From positions 5,145 to 69,144 of the forward strand of contig CAINBI010000077.1 of assembly GCA_903846555.1 (NCBI GenBank): 64,000 bases of DNA, given 5' to 3'. A model generated the notes under the pieces. That model worked only from the letters and a program-made list of their open reading frames with translations, searched no databases and was not told the DNA's origin. A program made the translations under genes and the position numbers. The stretch's first letter is position 1. Every line of letters begins with the position of its first letter. This document shows positions 6,160 through 26,341 of this stretch, one piece after another. Origin of the DNA: an uncultured Pseudomonadota bacterium (GTDB lineage Bacteria; Pseudomonadota; Gammaproteobacteria; Burkholderiales; Methylophilaceae).

Positions 6160-7164
6160 ATGGCAAAAATAGCCGTACTTGGCGCAGGTGCTTGGGGCAC
6201 GGCGCTTGCCATGAATATTAGTCAGCGTCACCAAGTGTCGTTATGGGCGCGCAATGCTGGGCATGTTTCTGGTATGCGCAAAGCACGCGCTAATCCGCTA
6301 TATTTGGGTGACTTTAAATTTAACGATAATCTGCAAGTAGAAGATGATTTGCAAGCGGCCATTAGTGGCGCAGATTTAATTTTATCTGTGGTGCCAACCG
6401 CAGGCTTTAGAGCCATACTCAAGGACATTAAAGCGCTAGGCTGCAAGTTACCTATTATTTGGGCAAACAAAGGCTTGGAGCCAAAATCTGCAAAACTACC
6501 CTATGAAGTGGCGCTAGAAGAATTAGGTGACCCTAAAGTCACGGGTCAGCATTGGGGTGTACTTTCTGGGCCGAGTTTTGCCGCAGAGTTAGTCCGTGGC
6601 CTGCCCACGGCGGTGACCGTTGCTGCCAATGATGAAGCTTTTTCTAATGAAGCCGCCTTGCTCATACACGGTGCCAATTTACGGGTGTACCACACCACCG
6701 ATGTCATCGGCGTTTCAGTTGGTGGCGCAGTTAAAAACGTGATGGCGATTGCCGCTGGTATTAGCGACGGTATGGGTTTTGGCAATAATGCCAGAGCCGC
6801 CATGATTACACGCGGCTTGGCTGAAATGACGCGCTTTGGCGTGGCCTTAGGCGCAAAGCCCGATACTTTTATGGGCTTAGCTGGTGCGGGAGATTTAATA
6901 CTCACCTGCACAGGCCAATATTCTAGAAATAGAGAGGTTGGCTTGCAACTCGCCAGCGGAAAATCATTGACGGATATTCTACAAGGCTTAGGGCATGTAG
7001 CAGAAGGCGTGAATACCACGGCCGAAGTCATGCGACTTGCCAATAAAATGCAGGTAGATATGCCGATTACTTATCAGGTTGATCAAGTGCTATCACACAG
7101 TAAAAGCGCGCAAGATGCCGTGATGGATTTGCTAGGCCGTGAGCAAAAGGCTGAAGGGCTGTAG
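6160..7164 (+). CDS. gpsA: NAD(P)H-dependent glycerol-3-phosphate dehydrogenase
   Basis: 334 aa; GAGAWGTALA Rossmann motif, GLKNV-type core, conserved context. Confidence 0.95.
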   Translation: MAKIAVLGAGAWGTALAMNISQRHQVSLWARNAGHVSGMRKARANPLYLGDFKFNDNLQVEDDLQAAISGADLILSVVPTAGFRAILKDIKALGCKLPIIWANKGLEPKSAKLPYEVALEELGDPKVTGQHWGVLSGPSFAAELVRGLPTAVTVAANDEAFSNEAALLIHGANLRVYHTTDVIGVSVGGAVKNVMAIAAGISDGMGFGNNARAAMITRGLAEMTRFGVALGAKPDTFMGLAGAGDLILTCTGQYSRNREVGLQLASGKSLTDILQGLGHVAEGVNTTAEVMRLANKMQVDMPITYQVDQVLSHSKSAQDAVMDLLGREQKAEGL

Positions 7165-7208
7165 TCTGGTATTAAAAAAATCCTGTGTTTGAAAAAGCCC
7201 AAAAAGAT

Positions 7209-7673
7209 ATGTTTAATATTGCCCTCTACGAACCCAATATACCGCAAAACACCGGCAATATTATTCGCCTAGCAGCCAATAACGGCTGCCATCTTCATCT
7301 AATCGAGCCGCTGGGATTTGATCTTGAAGATAAAAATTTGCGCCGATCAGGTCTGGATTATTTTGACTTGGCAAACGTGAGTCTATACCCCAATTATGAA
7401 GCGTTTTTAAAGGCGATGGACGGTCATAGAATATTGGCTTTGACGACAAAAGCTACGCGCCCATATAACCAAATTCAATATCTAGCCGGCGATGTATTGT
7501 TATTTGGCTCAGAAACCGCAGGGCTGCCTGAAGCCGTCCGCCAAACGATCGCCACAGATCATCAATTAAGAATACCAATGCGGCCCAATAATCGCAGCAT
7601 GAACCTATCCAATACCGTGGCCATCGTTAGCTATCAGGCATGGGCGCAACTAGGATTTGCAGGCGGGGAATAA
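7209..7673 (+). CDS. trmL: tRNA (cytidine/uridine-2'-O-)-methyltransferase TrmL (SpoU family)
   Basis: [26 protein letters not shown] aligns with the E. coli TrmL N-terminus. The ORF track starts at GTG 7185, but ATG 7209 matches homologues better. Confidence 0.9.
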
Positions 7674-7832
7674 GCCTAAGCGAGATTTATCAGTGGCTCA
7701 ACTTACTGCACAACCAAGTAAGCTCCAAAAATTGTCATGTAGCACATTCCTAATGGCATTAACTTGTTGAATGTACCTGAATGCAAAGCGCTTGGCTTAA
7801 CTCACTTGTGAATAAGACCGAGATTGATTTAT

Positions 7833-10658
7833 TTAATGCGCACTTTCCCAATTACACCCTACACCTACCTCAGCCAACAACGGCACATCCAATTTAGCCA
7901 CATGTTGCATCAATAGCGGTAGCTGGATTTTAACCAAATCAAGTTCGTTATCCGGCACTTCCAGCACCAGTTCATCGTGTACTTGCATGATGAGTTTTGA
8001 GGCAAGTTTTTCATCACGTAGCCATTTGTCTACCGCAATCATTGCCAGCTTAATCAAGTCTGCCGCTGTGCCTTGCATCGGTGCGTTAATGGCGGCGCGT
8101 TCTGCGCCAGCGCGTTTCATTCCATTGGCGCTATTGATTTCTGGCACCCATAATCGGCGGCCGAAGTAGGTTTCTACATAGCCTTTTTGTTTAGCGAGTT
8201 CTCGGGTGTTTTCCATATATTGACGCACGCCAGGGTAACGTGAAAAGTAGCGTTCTATATAGTTGGCGGCGGCGCTGCGCTCAATGTTAAGATTTTGCGC
8301 TAAGCCAAATGCGCTCATGCCGTAAATTAAGCCAAAGTTGATGACTTTTGCGTAACGGCGTTGCTCGTTATCGACGGCTTCACGCTCTACGCCAAACACT
8401 TCGGCAGCGGTGGCGCGGTGAATATCTTCATTGTTAGCAAATGCCTGCAACATACCTTCATCTTGCGATAAATGCGCCATGATGCGTAACTCGATTTGGG
8501 AATAATCGGCCGATACAATATGGCTGCCTGTAGGCGCGATAAACGCTTCACGAATTCGGCGGCCTTCGGCGGAGCGTACGGGGATATTTTGCAAGTTAGG
8601 ATCTGAGCTAGCGAGTCTGCCAGTAATAGCCACGGCTTGATTGTAGCTGGTATGCACACGGCCAGTGGTCGGGTTAATCATGAGTGGCAGTTTGTCGGTG
8701 TAGGTCGATTTTAGTTTGGCTAAGCCGCGATATTCGAGCAACACTTTTGGCAGTGGGTAATCAAGCGCCAGCTCCTGCAACACATCTTCATCGGTAGATG
8801 GCGCGCCGCTAGGTGTTTTTTTGGTTGGTTTAATACCTAGCTTACCGAATAGAATTTCTTGCAATTGTTTAGGTGAAGCCAAATTGAAGGGTTGACCGGC
8901 CAGCTCATACGCTTTATTTTCTAAGGCGACCAACTTCATGCCAATTTCATTACTTTGAATATTAAGCATGTCTCTATCGATCAACACGCCGTTGCGCTCA
9001 ATAGTGAACAGCACCTTCGAGCTTGGCATTTCGATGTGGTTGTAAATGTAGTCCAGCTTGGCATCGGCGGCAATTTGCGGGTACATGGCTTGATGCAATT
9101 GCATGGTAATGTCAGCATCTTCTGCGGCGTACTCAGCCGCTATTTCTACCGTCACTTGGTTAAATGTTACCTGCTTGGCGCCTTTGCCCGCTACGTCTTG
9201 AAAGCTAATGGTTTTAAGGTCTAAATGGCGCATGGCTAGGTCATCCATGCCGTGGGTTTTGTGCGATTCGAACACGTAAGATTGTAGTAGCGTATCGTGC
9301 GCAATGCCGTTCAGGGCGATACCGTGATTCGCCAGCACATGTTGGTCATATTTAAAGTTTTGCCCTACTTTTTTGATGGCAGGGTTTTCTAAAACAGGCT
9401 TGATTTTAGCTAAAGTTTCAGCAAAGTTGAGTTGTTCAGGCGCATCAAAATAATCATGTTTTAATGGTAGGTAAGCGGCACTGCCCGCTTCTACGCTGAA
9501 CGACATGCCAACAATTTTGGCGGTCATTGGGTCTAGCGAAGTGGTTTCGGTATCGAAGCAGACTAAGTCAGCGGTGCTTAACTTTGCCAGCCAGCGGTCT
9601 AATTGTTCGTTGGTTAAAATCGTTTCGTAATTGCGGCTAGTGTTTGCTTGATAAGACTGCGCAAATAAATCCGTTCGTGGTGAGACTTGGTCGAAGGACT
9701 CAGGGCGAGCGGAGGGTGTGCTGAACAGGTCTGTTCCTGAGGTGTTGGTTGAAGCGCTAGGCCTAGACTGGGGGCTGTCGGGCATATTGTCTAATTCACG
9801 CCGCCAGCTTCTAAATTCAAAGCGATCAAACAATTCTGCTAACTTGGCTTTATTTTGCGGCTGCGGCGCAAGATCGCTCAGGTTTTCCTGAACGCCAACA
9901 TCACAACGGATGGTAATTAATTGGCGAGCGGTAGGTAACCACGGCAAGGCTTTTCGTAAATTTTCGCCCACCACACCCTTAATGTTATCGGCATTGGCCA
10001 CAATGTTATCTAGTGACCCGTATTCTTTAAGCCATTTAACAGCCGTTTTTGGCCCAACCTTTTCCACGCCAGGCACATTGTCTGAGGTGTCGCCGACCAA
10101 AACGAGATAATCTACCATCAGGCTCGGTGGTATGCCAAACTTCCGCTCAACGCCTGCAATGTCGAGAACATCATCGACTTTTCTGAAAGCATCGCGCATG
10201 GTATTCACTACCGTAATATGCTCATTCACCAGTTGTGATATATCTTTATCACCAGTAGAAATGATCACGCGCACACCTTCGCGCTCGGCTTGCCTAGCGA
10301 GTGCGCCAATCACATCGTCGGCCTCTACGCCTTCTTCCATAATCAGCGGCCATCCCATGGCTCTAATCGCTTCATGCAGCGGTTCTATCTGCGGGCGTAA
10401 ATCCTCAGGCATAGAAGCGCGATTGGCTTTATATTCGGCATAAATATCGTCGCGAAAAGTTTTGCCTTTAGCATCAAAAATACACGCGCTATAATCGCTA
10501 GGGTAATCTTTATGCAAACGGCGTAACATATTGAGTACGCCCTGAATCGCCCCAGTGGGCTCATTTTGACGATTTCTCAAGTCAGGCATGGCGTGAAAGG
10601 CGCGATACAGGTAGGATGACCCATCAACTAATAACAAGGTTTTCATATTGGCTTTCAA
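7833..10658 (-). CDS. polA: DNA polymerase I
   Basis: 941 aa with 5'-nuclease (LLLVDGSSYLYRAF), 3'-5' exonuclease (FDTETTSLD) and Pol A motifs (DYSQIELRIMAH, QVHDELV). Confidence 0.97.
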   Translation of the reverse strand: MKANMKTLLLVDGSSYLYRAFHAMPDLRNRQNEPTGAIQGVLNMLRRLHKDYPSDYSACIFDAKGKTFRDDIYAEYKANRASMPEDLRPQIEPLHEAIRAMGWPLIMEEGVEADDVIGALARQAEREGVRVIISTGDKDISQLVNEHITVVNTMRDAFRKVDDVLDIAGVERKFGIPPSLMVDYLVLVGDTSDNVPGVEKVGPKTAVKWLKEYGSLDNIVANADNIKGVVGENLRKALPWLPTARQLITIRCDVGVQENLSDLAPQPQNKAKLAELFDRFEFRSWRRELDNMPDSPQSRPSASTNTSGTDLFSTPSARPESFDQVSPRTDLFAQSYQANTSRNYETILTNEQLDRWLAKLSTADLVCFDTETTSLDPMTAKIVGMSFSVEAGSAAYLPLKHDYFDAPEQLNFAETLAKIKPVLENPAIKKVGQNFKYDQHVLANHGIALNGIAHDTLLQSYVFESHKTHGMDDLAMRHLDLKTISFQDVAGKGAKQVTFNQVTVEIAAEYAAEDADITMQLHQAMYPQIAADAKLDYIYNHIEMPSSKVLFTIERNGVLIDRDMLNIQSNEIGMKLVALENKAYELAGQPFNLASPKQLQEILFGKLGIKPTKKTPSGAPSTDEDVLQELALDYPLPKVLLEYRGLAKLKSTYTDKLPLMINPTTGRVHTSYNQAVAITGRLASSDPNLQNIPVRSAEGRRIREAFIAPTGSHIVSADYSQIELRIMAHLSQDEGMLQAFANNEDIHRATAAEVFGVEREAVDNEQRRYAKVINFGLIYGMSAFGLAQNLNIERSAAANYIERYFSRYPGVRQYMENTRELAKQKGYVETYFGRRLWVPEINSANGMKRAGAERAAINAPMQGTAADLIKLAMIAVDKWLRDEKLASKLIMQVHDELVLEVPDNELDLVKIQLPLLMQHVAKLDVPLLAEVGVGCNWESAH
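9666..9712. repeat. Short-form copy of the 1003-1120 palindromic element, in frame within the polA interdomain linker
   Basis: 19/19 identity with 1009-1027, plus the shared right arm ctcagggcga (9699-9708 vs 1092-1101). It encodes SARPESFDQVSPRTDLF on the minus strand. Confidence 0.8.
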
Positions 10659-19814: not shown

Positions 19815-20375
19815 ATGACACAAAACGAATCTGCAATTGAACAAATTAACCTTGGCTATAATGAGCCAGAAGATAGGTTGTTGCTAAAGGTTGGCCTTGC
19901 TGATAAAACTGAGGTCGCGGTATGGATTACGCGGCGTGTGTGCAAGTTAATGTGGAGTGCGCTACATGCCGCCAGCAACGCGTTATTGCCCACGGCGACT
20001 CACTTTGCAGCGCCTACCATTACAACGCCAGATGGTAAAAATCAAGCGATTAAAAACTTTATTCAAGCGGCAGACGTGCAGCAGAGAATTGAGCGTCTGG
20101 ATTTTAAGTCTGAATATACTTCAGATAGGCTATCACGCTCAGAAGAGCCTATGCTGGCGGTGCAATGCATGATAGTAACTATCGGCAATTTACCCCCACA
20201 GTTAGAGTTGCAATGCACCAATGGGCAGGCCGTTAAAATTGCGCTTACCCATGAGTTGGTGCATGCCGTCACTAGTATGATGCAGCTGGCAACGCGTGAA
20301 GCAGGTTGGGATTTAATGATGGACGCAGACACCAAGCTAGTCAACATCATTTCTGCAACGCAAACCTTACATTAA
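19815..20375 (+). CDS. Hypothetical protein
   Basis: 186-aa ORF with native-looking composition, divergent from groES. No motif recognised. Confidence 0.55.
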   Translation: MTQNESAIEQINLGYNEPEDRLLLKVGLADKTEVAVWITRRVCKLMWSALHAASNALLPTATHFAAPTITTPDGKNQAIKNFIQAADVQQRIERLDFKSEYTSDRLSRSEEPMLAVQCMIVTIGNLPPQLELQCTNGQAVKIALTHELVHAVTSMMQLATREAGWDLMMDADTKLVNIISATQTLH

Positions 20376-20390
20376 GTAGATAATCAAACT

Positions 20391-21449
20391 ATGCAATATC
20401 GTCAATTAGGTGGTTCCAATTTAAACGTTTCAGCTGTTTGCCTAGGCACCATGACCTATGGCGACCAAAATACCGAGGCCGAAGCACACGAGCAGTTAGA
20501 TTATGCCTTAGCGCACGGTATCAATTTTATTGATACCGCTGAAATGTATCCCGTGCCGCCCAAGGCCGAAACCTTTACCCGCACCGAAACCATGCTGGGT
20601 CATTGGCTTAAAAATCAGCAGCGCGATAAAATTATTTTGGGCAGCAAAGTGGCAGGGCGTAACCGTGGGCTAAGCTGGATACGCAATGGCGATGAATCAC
20701 TTACCAAGGCTAATATTCGTAGTGCCATTCATGATTCTTTAAAGCGCTTGCAAACTGACTATATCGACCTTTATCAACTACATTGGCCAGAGCGCAATGT
20801 GCCGCTGTTTGGGCAATATCAGTTTGATCCTAAATTAGAGCTGGACGCACAAGGCAATCAAAAAGCGTGGGTGAGCATACACAGCCAATTAGATACGCTA
20901 GCCGAACTTATACAAGAAGGCAAAGTGCGCGCCATTGGGCTTTCTAATGAGCAGCCGTGGGGCATTATGGAGTTTTTGCGTCTCAGCAAAGAATATAATT
21001 TGCCACGCGTTGCCACCCTGCAAAATAGCTATCATTTGATGAATCGCACGGTTGACTTTGGCATTAGCGAAATTTTGTATCGTGAAAATGTTAGCCTGCT
21101 TGCCTATTCTCCGCTGGCCTTTGGACATTTAACAGGCAAATACCTTGATGATCCACAAGCAAAAGGGCGTGTCACCATGTTTTTAGGCTACGCCCAACGC
21201 TATAATAAACCGAATGTAGCCGCCGCCAGCGTAGCCTACGCCAAGTTGGCGCGCGACCATGGCTTAACGCCGACGCAACTAGCCTTGAGTTTTGTGATGC
21301 ATCGCTGGTGCGTAACTAGCACTATTATTGGCGCAACCAACATGATGCAGTTGAAAGAAAATATAGCCGCCTGGAACACGACGTTATCACCAGAAGTTAT
21401 GCTGGAGATTGATCGATTACATCTACTGATGACGAACCCAGCGCCTTAA
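20391..21449 (+). CDS. NADP(H)-dependent aldo-keto reductase (Tas-like)
   Basis: 352 aa; GTMTYG, INFIDTAEMY, DLYQLHWP motifs. Confidence 0.9.
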   Translation: MQYRQLGGSNLNVSAVCLGTMTYGDQNTEAEAHEQLDYALAHGINFIDTAEMYPVPPKAETFTRTETMLGHWLKNQQRDKIILGSKVAGRNRGLSWIRNGDESLTKANIRSAIHDSLKRLQTDYIDLYQLHWPERNVPLFGQYQFDPKLELDAQGNQKAWVSIHSQLDTLAELIQEGKVRAIGLSNEQPWGIMEFLRLSKEYNLPRVATLQNSYHLMNRTVDFGISEILYRENVSLLAYSPLAFGHLTGKYLDDPQAKGRVTMFLGYAQRYNKPNVAAASVAYAKLARDHGLTPTQLALSFVMHRWCVTSTIIGATNMMQLKENIAAWNTTLSPEVMLEIDRLHLLMTNPAP

Positions 21450-21507
21450 ATTTGGTGCAAACTAAATCAGAAATTTTTTTAAATATTTATTAAAAAAGAA
21501 AGTCACT

Positions 21508-21849
21508 ATGAGCACCTTACCCAATTGTCCAAAATGTAATTCAGAATATAGCTATGAAGATGGTGATATGTACGTTTGCCCAGAATGTGCGCATGAATGG
21601 GCTAAAGATGGCGCCGCTGAAAAGTCAGATGAAGCGCGTGTCATCAAAGATTCTAACGGCAATATTCTGCAAGATGGCGACACCATTACCGTGATTAAAG
21701 ACCTTAAAGTAAAAGGCTCATCATTGGTGGTTAAAGTGGGTACTAAAGTGAAAAATATCCGTTTGGTCGATGGCGACCACGATATTGACTGCAAAATCGA
21801 TGGTATAGGCGCGATGAAGTTGAAGTCTGAGTTTGTTAAGAAAGCTTAA
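21508..21849 (+). CDS. yjdM: Zinc-ribbon protein YjdM/PhnA
   Basis: 113 aa; [25 protein letters not shown] zinc ribbon plus a C-terminal SH3-like part. Confidence 0.92.
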
Positions 21850-21917
21850 AGTTTTGGCTAAAGAGAAGGTAATTGTGGTTCCTTATATTCTTTTTCAAAT
21901 AAACATAAAGGTTAATC

Positions 21918-22778
21918 ATGTCAACCGTTAGAGAGCATTTTGATATAACTGCAAAAGCCCTGAATGCACAGACAAGCTGGTCGTTTATAAATGGTGACAA
22001 TGGCATCGAATGTATAGTGCTAGGAAAAATTTCATATTGTTTTGAAGAAAATGCTAAATACTGGTCTTTTTTTATACCTGAAGGAGCAAGTGTTAGCTGT
22101 GTTGAATATATGCTTAATATGCCTGACACCGCTCAATGTGTTATTACGGAAGAAGTGGCCATTTCACAAATAGCGGGTTTTACCGATAGTCCAGAACGCT
22201 ATCTGCTAGAATCTTTAAAATTTACTGGGCGAATTTATTTATATATTGATGAAGAATTAACACAAGACCTAATCGAGCGGACAGTAAATTTAGGAAAACG
22301 GCATGGATTTAGTGTGGCAGTAAGAGATAGAGCATATGTAAAAGCCTGCTATGAATTATCCAAGCCGCTTGTGTTTATTTCTCATGACTCACGAGATAAA
22401 GACGTTTTAGTTAGGAATTTGGCACTGGAGATGTCGATGCTTCTATGTCCTGTTTGGTATGATGAATTTTCGCTAAATGTTGGTGACAGCCTTCGAGAAA
22501 ACATAGAGCGAGGGCTTAAAGAAGCAAAAAAATGTGTTGTTATATTATCCCAAAATTTTATTTCAAATGGTGGCTGGACAAAAGCGGAATTCGACTCGAT
22601 TTATATTCGTGAGATACATGAAAAAAAGAATGTTATTCTTCCAGTTTGGCATAACGTCAGCGTACAGGAGGTTTATGAATACAGCCCCCGCTTAGCTGAT
22701 AAGGTGGCGTTGAACTCATCAATAGGAGAAAAAGCGTTAGCTAAAAAATTGGTTGAAGCCGTTACCAAGCCTGTCTAG
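21918..22778 (+). CDS. Unknown N-terminal domain (about 148 aa) fused to a C-terminal TIR domain
   Basis: From aa 150: LVFISHDSRDKD...VWYDEFSLNVGDSLRENIERGL...VVILSQNF...GGWTKAEF...ILPVWHNVS..EVYEYSPRLA is a classic bacterial TIR_2 pattern, including the W-x3-E glutamate (E224, nt 22587-22589). The gene is AT-richer than its flanks. Confidence 0.8.
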   Translation: MSTVREHFDITAKALNAQTSWSFINGDNGIECIVLGKISYCFEENAKYWSFFIPEGASVSCVEYMLNMPDTAQCVITEEVAISQIAGFTDSPERYLLESLKFTGRIYLYIDEELTQDLIERTVNLGKRHGFSVAVRDRAYVKACYELSKPLVFISHDSRDKDVLVRNLALEMSMLLCPVWYDEFSLNVGDSLRENIERGLKEAKKCVVILSQNFISNGGWTKAEFDSIYIREIHEKKNVILPVWHNVSVQEVYEYSPRLADKVALNSSIGEKALAKKLVEAVTKPV

Positions 22779-22809
22779 GCTCAGCAATAGCAGGGGTCGT
22801 ACGATTAAC

Positions 22810-24726
22810 TTAAGGCCGCTTTGCGTGAAACATCAACGTCTGCGGTGGCCCCATCTTAATCACTGGTTTACGAATGCTGCCCATCACATGCATTTCGCAA
22901 GGTTTGCAGTCAAATTTCAAGGTGAATCTATCGTTGCCGTTAATTAGCGTCATTGGTTCGGCGGTTACCGTGCCTTGCACGCCAATCACACCTTTGGCTT
23001 CTTTTGGGCACATGCCGTGGCTAAAGCGCAGGCAATGTTTGGTAATCATTAGCGGTACTTCGCCTAATTCTTTATTGGCTTCGTAGGCAGAGGCAATGAG
23101 TTTCACGCCGTGTTTTTCGTAAAAATGGCGGGCTTTTTGGTTATACACATTGGCCAGATAAGTTAAAGTATCTTCTGGAAAAATGACTGGAGGCACTGCG
23201 GCAGCTTTAGGTTGCGGGCGTTGATAGCCCTTTTGGCGTACTTGCTCTAATTGCGTAATTGCATCGCGGCGTAAATTATTGACTACGGAAGCTGGCACAA
23301 ACCAAGCTTGGGTAGTCTGCAAATAGATTTCATTCGCCATAAAATTGGTATTGCCGAGTTTGCTTAAATTTTCACGCAAGCTGAGTTCTGATTTGGCAAT
23401 ATTGTCAGCCACTTGTTTATCAGCCACGCAATTGACTGTTGCGCTAAAACCAGCATCGTCGGTCACGCTTAGCGTAAAGCCGTCGCTAGTTTCGGCAAAA
23501 ATCATTTGCAATTGAATATTGCGTTGTGCGGAATCTTTTTCTAACAAACGCATAAATGCATGGTCGCGGTTGCGATACATCTGCATATTATTTCTAATAT
23601 CGACTGGCATTTCATTGGGAAATAGTTTTTTGCCGTCTACCGTATTGATGCGCAAGCCGACTAATTCTTTGTGTACGTCAAAAAAGCATACGCCATCGCC
23701 GTTGTGCAGTTGCACGTCTGATTCAACTTCAAAAAAGTCTTTGCCGACTTTTGACACTAATCCCAAGGTTTCACCAGAAAACTTAGGCGTATCAAACGCG
23801 CCAATATCCGCTTGGCGACCATTTACAAAATAATCCGTCGCGCTACGGTTAAAGGTTTTTTCTGGCTGCGGGTTAAACGTGTAAGTGCTAATGCCTGAAG
23901 ATGACTTTGCTAGCTCTGGCGATTCGTGCAAAATTTCGTCTAACAATTGGCGATAATGCGCGGTGGCATTTTTAACGTAAGGTAAATCTTTATAGCGGCC
24001 TTCAATTTTAAATGAGCTGACACCCGCACCAATTAAGGCGCGCAGGTTGGCACTTTGGTCATTATCTTTCATGGATAAAAAGTGTTTATCCTTGCCGATG
24101 ATGCGACCTTTTGAATCTTCCAGCGTAAAGGGCAAACGACATTCTTGTGAACATTCGCCACGATTTGCACTGCGGCCAGTGTGCGCGTGGCTGATGAAAC
24201 ATTGCCCGCTAAATGCCACGCACAATGCACCGTGAACAAAAAACTCTAAGTTACATTCTGTCGCGGCGGCAATTTTTTGTATGGTGTGCAAATCTAACTC
24301 GCGCGCCAACACCATTTGCGAAAAGCCGACTTGATCTAAAAACACCGCTTTTTCTACGGTGCGAATGTCGGCTTGCGTGCTGGCATGCAGTTGAATCGGC
24401 GGTAAATCCATTTGTAGCAAGCCCATATCTTGCACAATCAGCGCGTCTACTTCGGCATCGTAAAGCTGATGCGCCAACTTACGCACGCCTTCCAGCTCGT
24501 TATCATGAAAAATCGTATTCAGCGCCACAAACACTTCGGCATGGTAACGGTGCGCATGTTTAACCAAACGTACAATATCTTCTAGCGTATTAGGTGCTTT
24601 AGCCCGCGCGCCAAACGCTGGTCCACCGATATACACGGCATCTGCACCGTGATTAATCGCTTCTATGCCAAAATCTGCATTTTTAGCAGGGGCGAGAAGT
24701 TCTAAGTGGCGGCGGGTTTTTAGCAT
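22810..24726 (-). CDS. Peptidase U32 family protein, long form (RlhA/YdcP-like)
   Basis: 638 aa; LELLAPA..., EFFVHGALCVAFSGQC...RSANRGECSQECR U32 signature, plus a long C-terminal extension as in E. coli YdcP/RlhA. Confidence 0.8.
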   Translation of the reverse strand: MLKTRRHLELLAPAKNADFGIEAINHGADAVYIGGPAFGARAKAPNTLEDIVRLVKHAHRYHAEVFVALNTIFHDNELEGVRKLAHQLYDAEVDALIVQDMGLLQMDLPPIQLHASTQADIRTVEKAVFLDQVGFSQMVLARELDLHTIQKIAAATECNLEFFVHGALCVAFSGQCFISHAHTGRSANRGECSQECRLPFTLEDSKGRIIGKDKHFLSMKDNDQSANLRALIGAGVSSFKIEGRYKDLPYVKNATAHYRQLLDEILHESPELAKSSSGISTYTFNPQPEKTFNRSATDYFVNGRQADIGAFDTPKFSGETLGLVSKVGKDFFEVESDVQLHNGDGVCFFDVHKELVGLRINTVDGKKLFPNEMPVDIRNNMQMYRNRDHAFMRLLEKDSAQRNIQLQMIFAETSDGFTLSVTDDAGFSATVNCVADKQVADNIAKSELSLRENLSKLGNTNFMANEIYLQTTQAWFVPASVVNNLRRDAITQLEQVRQKGYQRPQPKAAAVPPVIFPEDTLTYLANVYNQKARHFYEKHGVKLIASAYEANKELGEVPLMITKHCLRFSHGMCPKEAKGVIGVQGTVTAEPMTLINGNDRFTLKFDCKPCEMHVMGSIRKPVIKMGPPQTLMFHAKRP

Positions 24727-24731
24727 AACGG

Positions 24732-25115
24732 TTAATGTCGATCAATATCAAAAGTGGCCGCTATATTAAGGCGCATTGCCACTACCATCAACCGTTTATC
24801 GCGTGTCCAAAGCGTGGTATTTGCAGTTAATTGCGTAGAGGCTAATAAATGCGCGTCAATTAAGCCAATACCCAAGCCAAACAAAGCATGTTTTTCTATA
24901 AAATAATTAGCTTCTTCGGCATAAGCGACAGTGACTTGCGGAAGGTTGTCTAGCAAACTTAAAATTTGCTCACGCTGGCGTAAATTACCCAGCGCCAACT
25001 CGCCACGTACAAATGGGTGAACTGACACCCTGTTTTGCGTGAGCAATTGCGCCAGCATTACGTCATTTTCGCGCAAGTGGTCTATCCATACCGAGCTATC
25101 CACCAGCACCATCAT
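24732..25115 (-). CDS. vapC: Type II toxin VapC (PIN-domain ribonuclease)
   Basis: 127 aa; acidic PIN residues in LVDSSVWID, RGEL, LIDAHL and TRDKR. Lies 3 nt downstream of the antitoxin gene. Confidence 0.88.
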   Translation of the reverse strand: MMVLVDSSVWIDHLRENDVMLAQLLTQNRVSVHPFVRGELALGNLRQREQILSLLDNLPQVTVAYAEEANYFIEKHALFGLGIGLIDAHLLASTQLTANTTLWTRDKRLMVVAMRLNIAATFDIDRH

Positions 25116-25118
25116 GGT

Positions 25119-25313
25119 CTATTCAACACTTTTTCTACGCGCAATATTGTCTAACTGTGGCTCACTACCGCCTAAGCTCGCCAACCTCTGCGCACTTTCA
25201 CGCGCGATTAACGCTTTTAATGCCTCTTTAACCAAGCTAGATTTCTCTTGTAAGTTAGTTAAAGCCTGCGCTTTAGCTAATAAATCATCATCTAATACAA
25301 TGGTAGTTCTCAT
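25119..25313 (-). CDS. vapB: Type II antitoxin VapB family
   Basis: 64 aa; MRTTIVLDDDLLAKAQ... is typical of VapB-type antitoxins; upstream of vapC. Confidence 0.85.
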   Translation of the reverse strand: MRTTIVLDDDLLAKAQALTNLQEKSSLVKEALKALIARESAQRLASLGGSEPQLDNIARRKSVE

Positions 25314-25342
25314 TAAAGCCTCCTAAAGCTGTTGCCACTAAT

Positions 25343-25366
25343 ATAAGCATCAAATGATGCGCTTAT
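25343..25366. promoter_or_regulatory. Imperfect palindrome, possible VapB(C) autoregulatory operator
   Basis: ataagc-atca-aa-tgat-gc-gcttat, about 30 nt upstream of the vapB start. Confidence 0.3.
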
Positions 25367-25528
25367 TCATGCGTAATGACAATATAAATTACATTTGACA
25401 TAGTTTAAGTGAGGCGTTATTTTGGATACATTTAATTGATTGTTTGGTTTGTCTATAGCGATTAATAGTCTTAATTACTTTGACCCCTGATTGTTTAAAT
25501 ATTTGTATATAATTTTGAGAAAATAACA

Positions 25529-26341
25529 ATGATAAAAAAAATTGTAATTTATGGCTTGATGATTTTCTTGGTGTATCAAGGCCTAAGTTATTACACAGCT
25601 GACGCAACAGCAAAAAAACTTTCGAGTTGTACAAATATACAGAAATATCAGCAACTTGATAAAAACTCTGTACCAACTCGAGAGAAACTTTTATTTAGTG
25701 CTAAAGCTTGGCGTTGTGTAAAACTCAAACAAAATTTTGTTGAAGCATTTTTTTTCAAAGTACCTGAGCCATGGACTAATCCATCACGACAGTATGTTGA
25801 CCCTCCTTTTACTGAAGAGGAATTAAACGAAGAAGTGACAGTTGTTGATATTGTTGTGAAAAAAGATATACAAAATTTCGCGAAGATATTTCCAAGTAAT
25901 GTTGTAAATGATATTACGCAACAAATACCAAATGTTAGTTTGACCGCTTCTGAAAGCGATGAAGTTAAAAGAGAAGTCCAAAATAAGTCAGCTATATTAA
26001 AAAAATTAATCGACAATTTAAGAGACTTTAAGCCTGAATCTGCTGAAGTCATGGTTTTAAAGACGCAACTTGCATATTCTCTAGACCAATTAAAAATAAC
26101 TTATGAAGAAGGGTTTCAGGTTTATGCGGATGCAAGTAAATGTATGGCTGAAGTGGATGCACTTCTGGCCAAGCCAAAAAGTGAGCTTCAATTGCATAGA
26201 GATGATTTGCTTAAATTTCAATCTGAAATGAATCACGTTGAACTTAAATTTAGAGGCATTCAAACAAGGGAAAAGCAGATTGAAAAAGATTTAATTAAAG
26301 TAGCGGATGAAATAGACAGCCTTATAAGAGTTTATAGATAG
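25529..26341 (+). CDS. Orphan membrane-anchored coiled-coil protein
   Basis: 270 aa with one N-terminal TM helix and a K/E/L-rich helical C-terminal half. Very AT-rich. Ends 12 nt before bioA. Confidence 0.6.
   Translation: MIKKIVIYGLMIFLVYQGLSYYTADATAKKLSSCTNIQKYQQLDKNSVPTREKLLFSAKAWRCVKLKQNFVEAFFFKVPEPWTNPSRQYVDPPFTEEELNEEVTVVDIVVKKDIQNFAKIFPSNVVNDITQQIPNVSLTASESDEVKREVQNKSAILKKLIDNLRDFKPESAEVMVLKTQLAYSLDQLKITYEEGFQVYADASKCMAEVDALLAKPKSELQLHRDDLLKFQSEMNHVELKFRGIQTREKQIEKDLIKVADEIDSLIRVYR

Follow-up and report, generated by a model that had tools for sequence, protein, structure and literature searches.

The locus described here raises the question of what a gene for a TIR-domain protein does when it stands alone between two core genes of a methylotrophic bacterium. 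The gene, a complete open reading frame (ORF) with an ATG start, occupies positions 21918-22778 on the plus strand of a 64,000-nucleotide stretch of contig CAINBI010000077.1 (assembly GCA_903846555.1; this whole stretch is called the window below), and encodes a protein of 286 amino acids (aa) in which an N-terminal α/β domain is joined to a C-terminal TIR domain. The host was identified as Methylotenera by the neighbouring U32 gene. An earlier note on this DNA had placed the ORF in a 960-bp slot between yjdM and the U32 gene, with spacers of 68 and 31 nt, and had proposed a horizontally acquired orphan module; the coordinates were confirmed, and the slot is filled by the TIR gene. We consider it probable that the gene encodes a horizontally acquired, self-contained two-domain conflict protein, which would act most probably in anti-phage abortive infection.

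The acquisition of the gene was visible directly when the yjdM-U32 junction was compared across relatives, as the earlier note had suggested, and presence/absence polymorphism was found at this site. In the relative with a U32 protein of 96% identity (L100) the slot is empty, and yjdM adjoins the U32 gene across an 83-bp spacer (6915-6997 of that locus). The relative at 93% U32 identity (L101, 6915-6971) has neither yjdM nor the TIR gene, that at 90% (L103) carries a DUF3568 gene in the slot (7020-7433), and in M. versatilis (L105, 88%) the slot holds genes for PLA1, DoxX and SnoaL (6936-9043). Because the site is empty in a close relative and filled with different cargo in others, the claim of horizontal acquisition is borne out, and in Methylotenera the junction of yjdM and U32 is a hotspot for insertions. 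According to blastn of the empty site against the window, the inserted cassette measures about 968 bp (21851-22818, GC 0.378), since the two sites cease to be homologous at the yjdM stop (21850) and are homologous again from 22819. The cassette stands in place of the 83-bp spacer and its perfect bidirectional terminator hairpin shared by yjdM and the U32 gene, and the insertion altered the C-terminus of the U32 protein (22810-22818), which ends in MFHAKK in the empty-site relative (637 aa) and in MFHAKRP here (638 aa). No terminal direct or inverted repeats bracketing the cassette were found, and no terminator was detected before or behind the TIR gene as it stands now in a promoter/terminator scan. 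All contigs with an identical YjdM have the TIR gene, including a strain with a 98%-identical U32, and another Methylotenera carries a 73% homolog elsewhere, downstream of recJ. DNA similarity to the 82% homolog is limited to the ORF (21911-22762), and the ratio of nonsynonymous to synonymous substitution rates against it is 0.11, indicating that the TIR gene is under purifying selection. The gene is also AT-richer than its flanks, as had been noticed before: its GC content is 0.380, whereas the window averages 0.445 (which puts the gene at the 2.4th percentile among 861-bp windows), and its GC content at third codon positions (GC3) is 0.303 compared with ~0.45 in the flanking genes (z = -1.8; joint second-lowest among the 57 genes of the window). 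This AT-richness is genuine, yet moderate and not extreme.

The C-terminal half of the protein is a TIR domain (aa 152-282; 22371-22763, plus strand) of the clade that comprises AbTIR, BtTir, TcpB (BtpA) and PdTIR, according to Pfam, phmmer against the Protein Data Bank (PDB), Foldseek and PADLOC. The TIR_2 motifs quoted in the earlier note are present, and Pfam TIR_2 (PF13676) matched aa 152-248 with 53.4 bits (gathering cutoff 28; E 4.7e-14). The best PDB matches in phmmer were AbTIR structures (7uwg and 8g83; ~3e-31, with 2.8e-31 for AbTIR), followed by BtTir (7uxr), TcpB/BtpA (4c7m, 4lqc, 4lzp) and PdTIR (3h16), with ~37-44% identity across these four (E ~1e-22 to 3e-31). The full-length AlphaFold2 (AF2) model (pLDDT 84.9) matched 4lqc, 3h16 and 7uwg with Foldseek TM(target) values of 0.8-0.9, and nothing but TIR structures was matched by this model in the PDB. 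The αC-helix WxxxE motif (22575-22589, plus strand) is formed by W220 (tgg, 22575-22577) and E224 (gaa, 22587-22589), and the BB-loop GDSLR (aa 189-193; 22482-22496, plus strand) is identical to G174-R178 of AbTIR. E224 occupies the position of the catalytic αC-helix glutamate (E642 in SARM1, E208 in AbTIR), and W220 aligns with AbTIR W204, in agreement with the catalytic type of motif suspected earlier. Residues S143, W204, T205, E208 and W227 of AbTIR thereby correspond to S158, W220, T221, E224 and W244, and G174-D-S-L-R178 to G189-D-S-L-R193 (G174 to G189, S176 to S191), while AbTIR K202 is N217 in the Methylotenera protein. Among 60 aligned family members G189, W220, E224 and W244 do not vary, and conservation reaches at least 90% for S158 and S191. 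Mutagenesis of AbTIR demonstrated that E208 is catalytic and that W204 is needed for cyclisation, and activity also requires G174 and S176; the mapped residues S143, W204, T205, E208 and W227 are likewise functionally required (Manik et al., bioRxiv 10.1101/2022.05.07.491051). Since E224 aligns with the catalytic E208 and the active-site residues are conserved, the TIR domain is predicted to be a catalytically competent NADase. W220, the aromatic residue whose presence goes with cyclase activity, is retained as well.

The N-terminal domain (aa 1-148; 21918-22361, plus strand) is a putative sensor or regulatory module. When modelled alone with AF2 from 36 sequences (pLDDT 88.4, pTM 0.83), it was predicted to adopt a mixed α/β globular fold with the order α-βββ-αα-(ββ)-β-α-β-α, and the motifs KYWSF(F/Y)xP, FTGRxxxY and (V/I)RDxxY are kept across the family. 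The impression that these 148 aa belong to no recognised family was upheld by the searches, as no match was found in Pfam, NCBIfam or PDB sequences and profile searches of Pfam and the PDB returned noise. Foldseek against the PDB and BFVD (viral structures) gave nothing significant (best E ~0.03-0.07, TM ≤0.41). The weak matches were to the MutS connector, EcoT38I, Avs4, NurA and RuvC; a PD-(D/E)xK or RNase H-like nuclease was considered for aa 1-148 and rejected, there being no conserved acidic/lysine catalytic motif. The domain is also neither SAVED nor STING in profile and Foldseek searches.

A profile of the N-terminal domain retrieved 593 proteins from 1.84 billion representatives, 111 of them at E≤1e-10, and its fusions were tallied among the top 150 of the 593. 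TIR fusions accounted for 58 of these 150. A RES-type C-terminal region was found in three mutually divergent proteins (P0321, P0296 and P0334), the first of which matched Pfam RES at 1.9e-13 and is homologous to the other two (blastp 1e-39 to 1e-117). RES domains are NAD+-degrading toxins, as in the Xre-RES toxin-antitoxin systems and MbcT. In another protein (P0336) the domain is joined to a Shedu nuclease (SduA_C 7.4e-18, PADLOC SduA 3.5e-31), and one more carries an HNH-like Cys/His motif, recognised by eye without support from hidden Markov models; the Shedu and HNH-like fusions are each a single representative. In at least 11 proteins the domain lies behind 1-3 predicted transmembrane helices, and among these one has an extra OB fold and another contains the domain twice. 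Short matches were mostly truncated metagenomic ORFs, and a profile built from the non-TIR versions of the domain found 5 proteins only in a word-indexed search. One membrane-anchored protein (P0386; L131 6024-8792) is preceded by a gene for 582 aa that has no annotation and by a toxin-antitoxin pair resembling TacA/TacT; a signal-generating enzyme was not found near it, and thus a role as second-messenger receptor gains no support from this context. Judged by these homologies, the N-terminal domain is modular and reused with several distinct, predicted cell-killing modules.

The reuse of one domain with RES, Shedu, transmembrane and TIR partners follows the same pattern as the sensor domains of Shedu. 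The N-terminal domains of Shedu have been proposed to be infection sensors with allosteric control of the toxic effector, 59 of their 79 clusters are unnamed, and two novel α/β folds, NRF1 and NRF2, lack a PDB homolog (bioRxiv 10.1101/2023.08.10.552793). NRF2 is a three-layer α/β/α fold with a five-stranded sheet and three helices (same source), which is compatible with our model of aa 1-148 when compared by verbal description only. The likeness to type 1 Shedu (SduA) thus lies in the N-terminal domain, which also heads the bona fide Shedu nuclease P0336, whereas the effector is a TIR domain here and a PD-(D/E)xK nuclease in Shedu. It is plausible that aa 1-148 acts as a sensor. We would go further only tentatively, and rather doubt, that the domain could be a previously unnamed, widespread infection-sensor fold that serves as a universal 'clustering switch' on at least four unrelated killing modules, namely TIR NADase, RES NADase/phosphorylase, Shedu nuclease and membrane anchors; if this were true, the Methylotenera gene would be a natural minimal representative for working out the ligand and the activation.

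The label 'orphan' did not survive the homology searches. At E≤1e-3 the searches yielded 1,203 homologs of the 286-aa protein, the best 120 of which are nearly all full-length (97-100% coverage, 50-82% identity), with hosts such as Sulfuriferula, Gallionellaceae, Sulfuricurvum, Sulfurospirillum, Marinomonas, Salinivibrio, Acinetobacter, Legionella, Vibrio, Cytophagales and the cyanobacterium Stanieria. When each species was represented by a single genome, the scan yielded 422 relatives, and in 65 of the best 80 the match began at residue 1; these 80 came from Pseudomonadota, Campylobacterota, Bacteroidota, Desulfobacterota, Acidobacteriota, Planctomycetota, Verrucomicrobiota, Nitrospirota, Chloroflexota, Myxococcota, Hydrogenedentota and Patescibacteria, plus one metagenome-assembled genome (MAG) labelled Woesearchaeota. 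Full-length relatives (36-73% identity) occur in at least 13 bacterial phyla. In IMG/VR we found 3 near-full-length members and 1-2 partial ones, and in the phage and plasmid collections there were matches to the TIR half alone, e.g., DUF1883-TIR proteins on plasmids and prophage TIRs. The same TIR clade, at ~49% identity to aa 152-268, is widely distributed on conjugative plasmids of enterobacteria, where it is labelled 'DUF1883 domain-containing protein' (e.g., NZ_CP026401.1, 8698-9042). The presence of other N-terminal domains (DUF1883) on the same TIR clade confirms domain shuffling at the N-terminal position.

To search for a partner gene, all ORFs within ±7 kb of the TIR gene were clustered across 82 loci. 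No conserved partner emerged, as each neighbour family was present in at most 4 of the 82 loci, the most frequent one being an integrase. The TIR gene is therefore a stand-alone gene, as had been claimed. In the window itself, PADLOC gave no match to ThsA, CBASS, Pycsar, Argonaute or STAND among the 25 of 65 families listed, in accordance with the earlier note; the listed matches apart from the TIR gene were only housekeeping UvrD, DinG and PolA, mostly UvrD to GajB. Across the loci the neighbours form a mosaic with many housekeeping genes, and a visible minority belongs to defence or mobility: type I and IIG restriction-modification (RM) systems, MADS, PARIS, AbiL, Cas1, PDC candidates and integrases. 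Some members of the family lie in defence islands, which speaks for a role in defence. In Aliarcobacter (L021) the homolog adjoins a PARIS AriAB fusion (8.6e-110) within a type I RM locus, in another locus (L079) it adjoins AbiLii, and the 82% homolog (L001) lies downstream of a type IIG (MmeI/ISP-like) RM enzyme, at a distance of 16 bp. The Marinomonas copy stands behind a small helix-turn-helix gene in housekeeping surroundings. In Sulfuriferula nivalis (AP021881.1; L006 5572-14068) a 69% homolog is flanked by IS66 copies (TnpB and transposase) in opposite orientations. Fragments of an RF-1-family gene were observed on both sides of this homolog, an arrangement that resembles a composite-transposon-like insertion into a release-factor-family gene.

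Two further observations concern single lineages. In a subclade of Campylobacterota (L021 6066-9884, L022 6036-9884, L040 3997-5711) an unannotated gene for 295-321 aa overlaps the start codon of the TIR gene by 1-4 nt, and it is possible that it is a lineage-specific partner there. One of these loci (L022) belongs to the Woesearchaeota-labelled MAG and has the same neighbourhood as the Aliarcobacter contig (L021), which suggests mis-binning or a very recent transfer.

How such a protein could work is suggested by SpbK (YddK) of the Bacillus subtilis element ICEBs1, a single partnerless protein of ~270 aa on mobile DNA with an N-terminal sensor and a C-terminal TIR NADase (PMC12847820). SpbK's N-terminal domain docks on the assembled phage portal, the local TIR concentration rises, active sites form at the BE interfaces and NAD+ is depleted; TIR NADases are generally switched on through oligomerisation of accessory domains (PMC12847820). 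By analogy, trigger-induced clustering of TIR domains through the BE interface could also operate here. In the uninfected cell the TIR domains would be held apart or in an inactive arrangement. Binding of a trigger (a phage protein, a nucleic acid or a small ligand) by the N-terminal domain would cause clustering, and the TIR domains would then assemble head-to-tail through the BE interface, which would complete the active site. E224 would cleave NAD+ into nicotinamide and ADP-ribose (ADPR) or a cyclic ADPR (cADPR) isomer, and the depletion of NAD+ would arrest the cell before the phage cycle is completed. All of this, from the NADase activity and its trigger to the switch by oligomerisation and the phenotype in defence, is inferred. 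The two proteins differ in other respects, as no sequence relationship was detected, with no chain named SpbK present among the PDB sequence matches at E≤1, SpbK's N-terminal domain is a 94-aa 4-helix bundle whereas the one described here is a 148-aa α/β domain, and the products are ADPR and N1-cADPR for SpbK but 2'cADPR for the TIR proteins most closely related to that of Methylotenera.

SpbK (PMC12847820) and the single-protein systems TIR-V/VI/IX, which defend E. coli (PMC11350192), already combine an N-terminal domain with a TIR domain in one protein, and PADLOC contains the model PDC-S66; the suggestion that the gene lies outside the described TIR system architectures was therefore not sustained. 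The likeness to TIR-V/VI/IX, in which a single TIR protein suffices for protection (PMC11350192), was drawn by description only. PDC-S66 is a single-gene TIR candidate with a model length of 282, close to that of the Methylotenera protein, and matched the TIR half at 8.3e-47. However, the match was restricted to profile positions 151-280 of the 282 and left the N-terminal half unaligned, which suggests that the N-terminal domains differ. What is new here is an undescribed sensor-like domain on a single-gene TIR protein; single-gene sensor-TIR systems and modular sensor domains are already established, and current concepts are unchallenged.

Several points weigh against a role in abortive infection. 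The family is known from sequence and predicted structure alone, its N-terminal domain has no structural homolog, and the term 'sensor' is read from the architecture. PDC-S66 is a candidate model that the literature found merely lists, and it matches the TIR half alone. The role of AbTIR and TcpB/BtpA is itself unsettled, and these proteins were first described as host-directed virulence factors. In addition, most immediate neighbours in the 82 loci are housekeeping or unannotated genes, and the association with defence islands is partial and was assessed without a background comparison. Finally, viral contigs seldom carry members of the family, and the full-length protein is absent from the plasmid collection.

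The TIR domain could instead be a signal generator whose cADPR isomer (e.g., 2'cADPR) activates an effector encoded elsewhere, which would make the gene the 'orphan ThsB' of a split Thoeris-like pathway. The PADLOC match of the TIR half to ThsB1 (6.8e-35, TIR part) and the conserved cyclisation tryptophan W220 are consistent with this, and the variable N-terminal region of ThsB is likewise thought to sense infection. AbTIR and BtTir, its nearest relatives, produce 2'cADPR, a compound able to activate SIR2-SLOG ThsA (PMC11204291), and the authors of the SpbK study keep a similar option open for N1-cADPR (PMC12847820). However, every Thoeris type described has its TIR gene and its effector gene in one operon (PMC12847820, discussion), whereas ThsA (SIR2-SLOG, Macro-TM or other) was absent beside the TIR gene in the 82 loci and among the PADLOC matches listed for the window. 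By its gene content, the locus is not Thoeris. A receptor acting in trans would be required in all the unrelated recipient genomes of at least 13 phyla, with no recurring partner to supply it. Moreover, the fusion of the N-terminal domain to terminal effectors (RES, Shedu nuclease, transmembrane) places the TIR domain in the effector slot. Effectors of the CBASS/Pycsar type (TIR-SAVED, TIR-STING) differ as well, as there is no SAVED or STING domain in this protein and no cyclase neighbour in the 82 loci or among the PADLOC matches listed for the window; the SAVED-TIR models of PADLOC gave weak matches to the TIR domain only (1.3e-4). Thus, because no receptor gene co-travels in the 82 loci and the other fusion partners are terminal effectors, we favour a TIR domain that would itself be the effector over a cyclic product acting on a receptor in trans, and consider the signal generator improbable.

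Another explanation is a toxin or addiction module unrelated to phages, i.e., an autoinhibited NADase in which the N-terminal domain would be a cis-acting antitoxin or a stress sensor and which would serve to maintain mobile DNA or to answer stress. In its favour, RES, the toxin domain of the Xre-RES systems, is another fusion partner of the N-terminal domain, many loci lack defence neighbours, and the gene lies in a recombination hotspot beside a swappable toxin-antitoxin islet. Yet the full-length protein is not on plasmids and no mobile-element ends can be recognised at the cassette, which leaves nothing evident for such a module to maintain; the fusion to the Shedu nuclease and the linkage to RM, PARIS and AbiL in several loci favour phage defence. 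Although the roles in phage defence and addiction are not mutually exclusive, we regard a pure toxin or addiction function as having little probability.

A Tcp-type effector directed against a eukaryotic host, which would disturb TLR/MyD88 signalling or host NAD+ in the manner of TcpB/BtpA and TcpC, is very improbable. The Tcp proteins (AbTIR, BtTir, TcpB and PdTIR) do provide the nearest TIR domains, TcpB/BtpA of Brucella being among the closest solved relatives, with an identical GDSLR BB loop, the conserved WxxxE, a similar total size and layout of N-terminal domain plus TIR, and AbTIR is likewise located in an accessory region. However, their N-terminal domains are coiled coils (aa 27-118 in AbTir) whereas an α/β domain is present here, the protein has no hydrophobic signal-peptide-like or transmembrane segment, and the proposed role in host immune evasion is ill-suited to a free-living environmental methylotroph known from metagenomes and to a family found in environmental Acidobacteriota, Planctomycetota, Nitrospirota, cyanobacteria and others. 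A housekeeping enzyme, e.g., for NAD-RNA decapping or NAD+ turnover, is likewise very improbable, since despite the in vitro removal of nicotinamide from NAD-capped RNA by bacterial TIRs including AbTIR (PMC10937652) the gene is polymorphic for presence and absence among relatives at 96-98% U32 identity, has unrelated contexts in every lineage and is atypical in composition.

The immediate surroundings of the gene in the window are simple. The left flank is the core gene yjdM for a zinc-ribbon protein (21508-21849, plus strand; Pfam Zn_Ribbon_YjdM/YjdM), and the right flank is a U32 peptidase-family gene (U32/RlhA-like; 22810-24726, minus strand), annotated in some sources as 23S rRNA 5-hydroxycytidine C2501 synthase. 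The 68-nt 5' spacer (21850-21917, plus strand) contains a Shine-Dalgarno-like AAAGG at 21907-21911, 6 nt before the ATG, and the promoter/terminator scan found neither a promoter nor a terminator in it. Since there is no terminator between yjdM and the TIR gene, read-through from yjdM is possible. The 31-nt 3' spacer (22779-22809) leads to the convergent U32 gene, and the same scan detected no terminator there; an Rfam scan of the slot returned sub-threshold eukaryotic families only, which are chance matches. Comparison of the window (20391-24726) with another strain (L091) revealed a recombination breakpoint at the TIR/U32 junction, as the DNA identity is 99.9% in the aldo-keto reductase (AKR) gene, 100% in yjdM and in both spacers, one nucleotide apart in the TIR gene and 96.5% in the U32 gene. 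A second variable islet follows beyond the U32 gene (24732-26341) and consists of vapBC (24732-25313) and an ORF for 270 aa (25529-26341), which has a GC content of 0.33, a GC3 of 0.24 (the window minimum) and a weak match to the coiled-coil DUF7491, and for which a PADLOC match was not found. In L091 and L100 a ParE-type toxin-antitoxin pair (93 and 97 aa) replaces this islet, and in L101, L103 and L105 the islet is absent. An ORF for 186 aa (19815-20375) without a Pfam match is conserved and syntenic between groES and the aldo-keto reductase gene in all Methylotenera relatives examined.

For Methylotenera, the locus is a clear case in nature of a gene of the defence type placed between core genes, for which close relatives provide both empty alleles and alleles with other contents. 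If a self-contained conflict protein is the correct interpretation, the bacterial TIR repertoire would gain a widespread immune protein that depletes NAD+, is encoded by one gene and occurs in at least 13 phyla. At the same time, its undescribed N-terminal domain is common to TIR, RES, Shedu and membrane effectors, and the ligand of this domain would explain how several classes of effectors are switched on.

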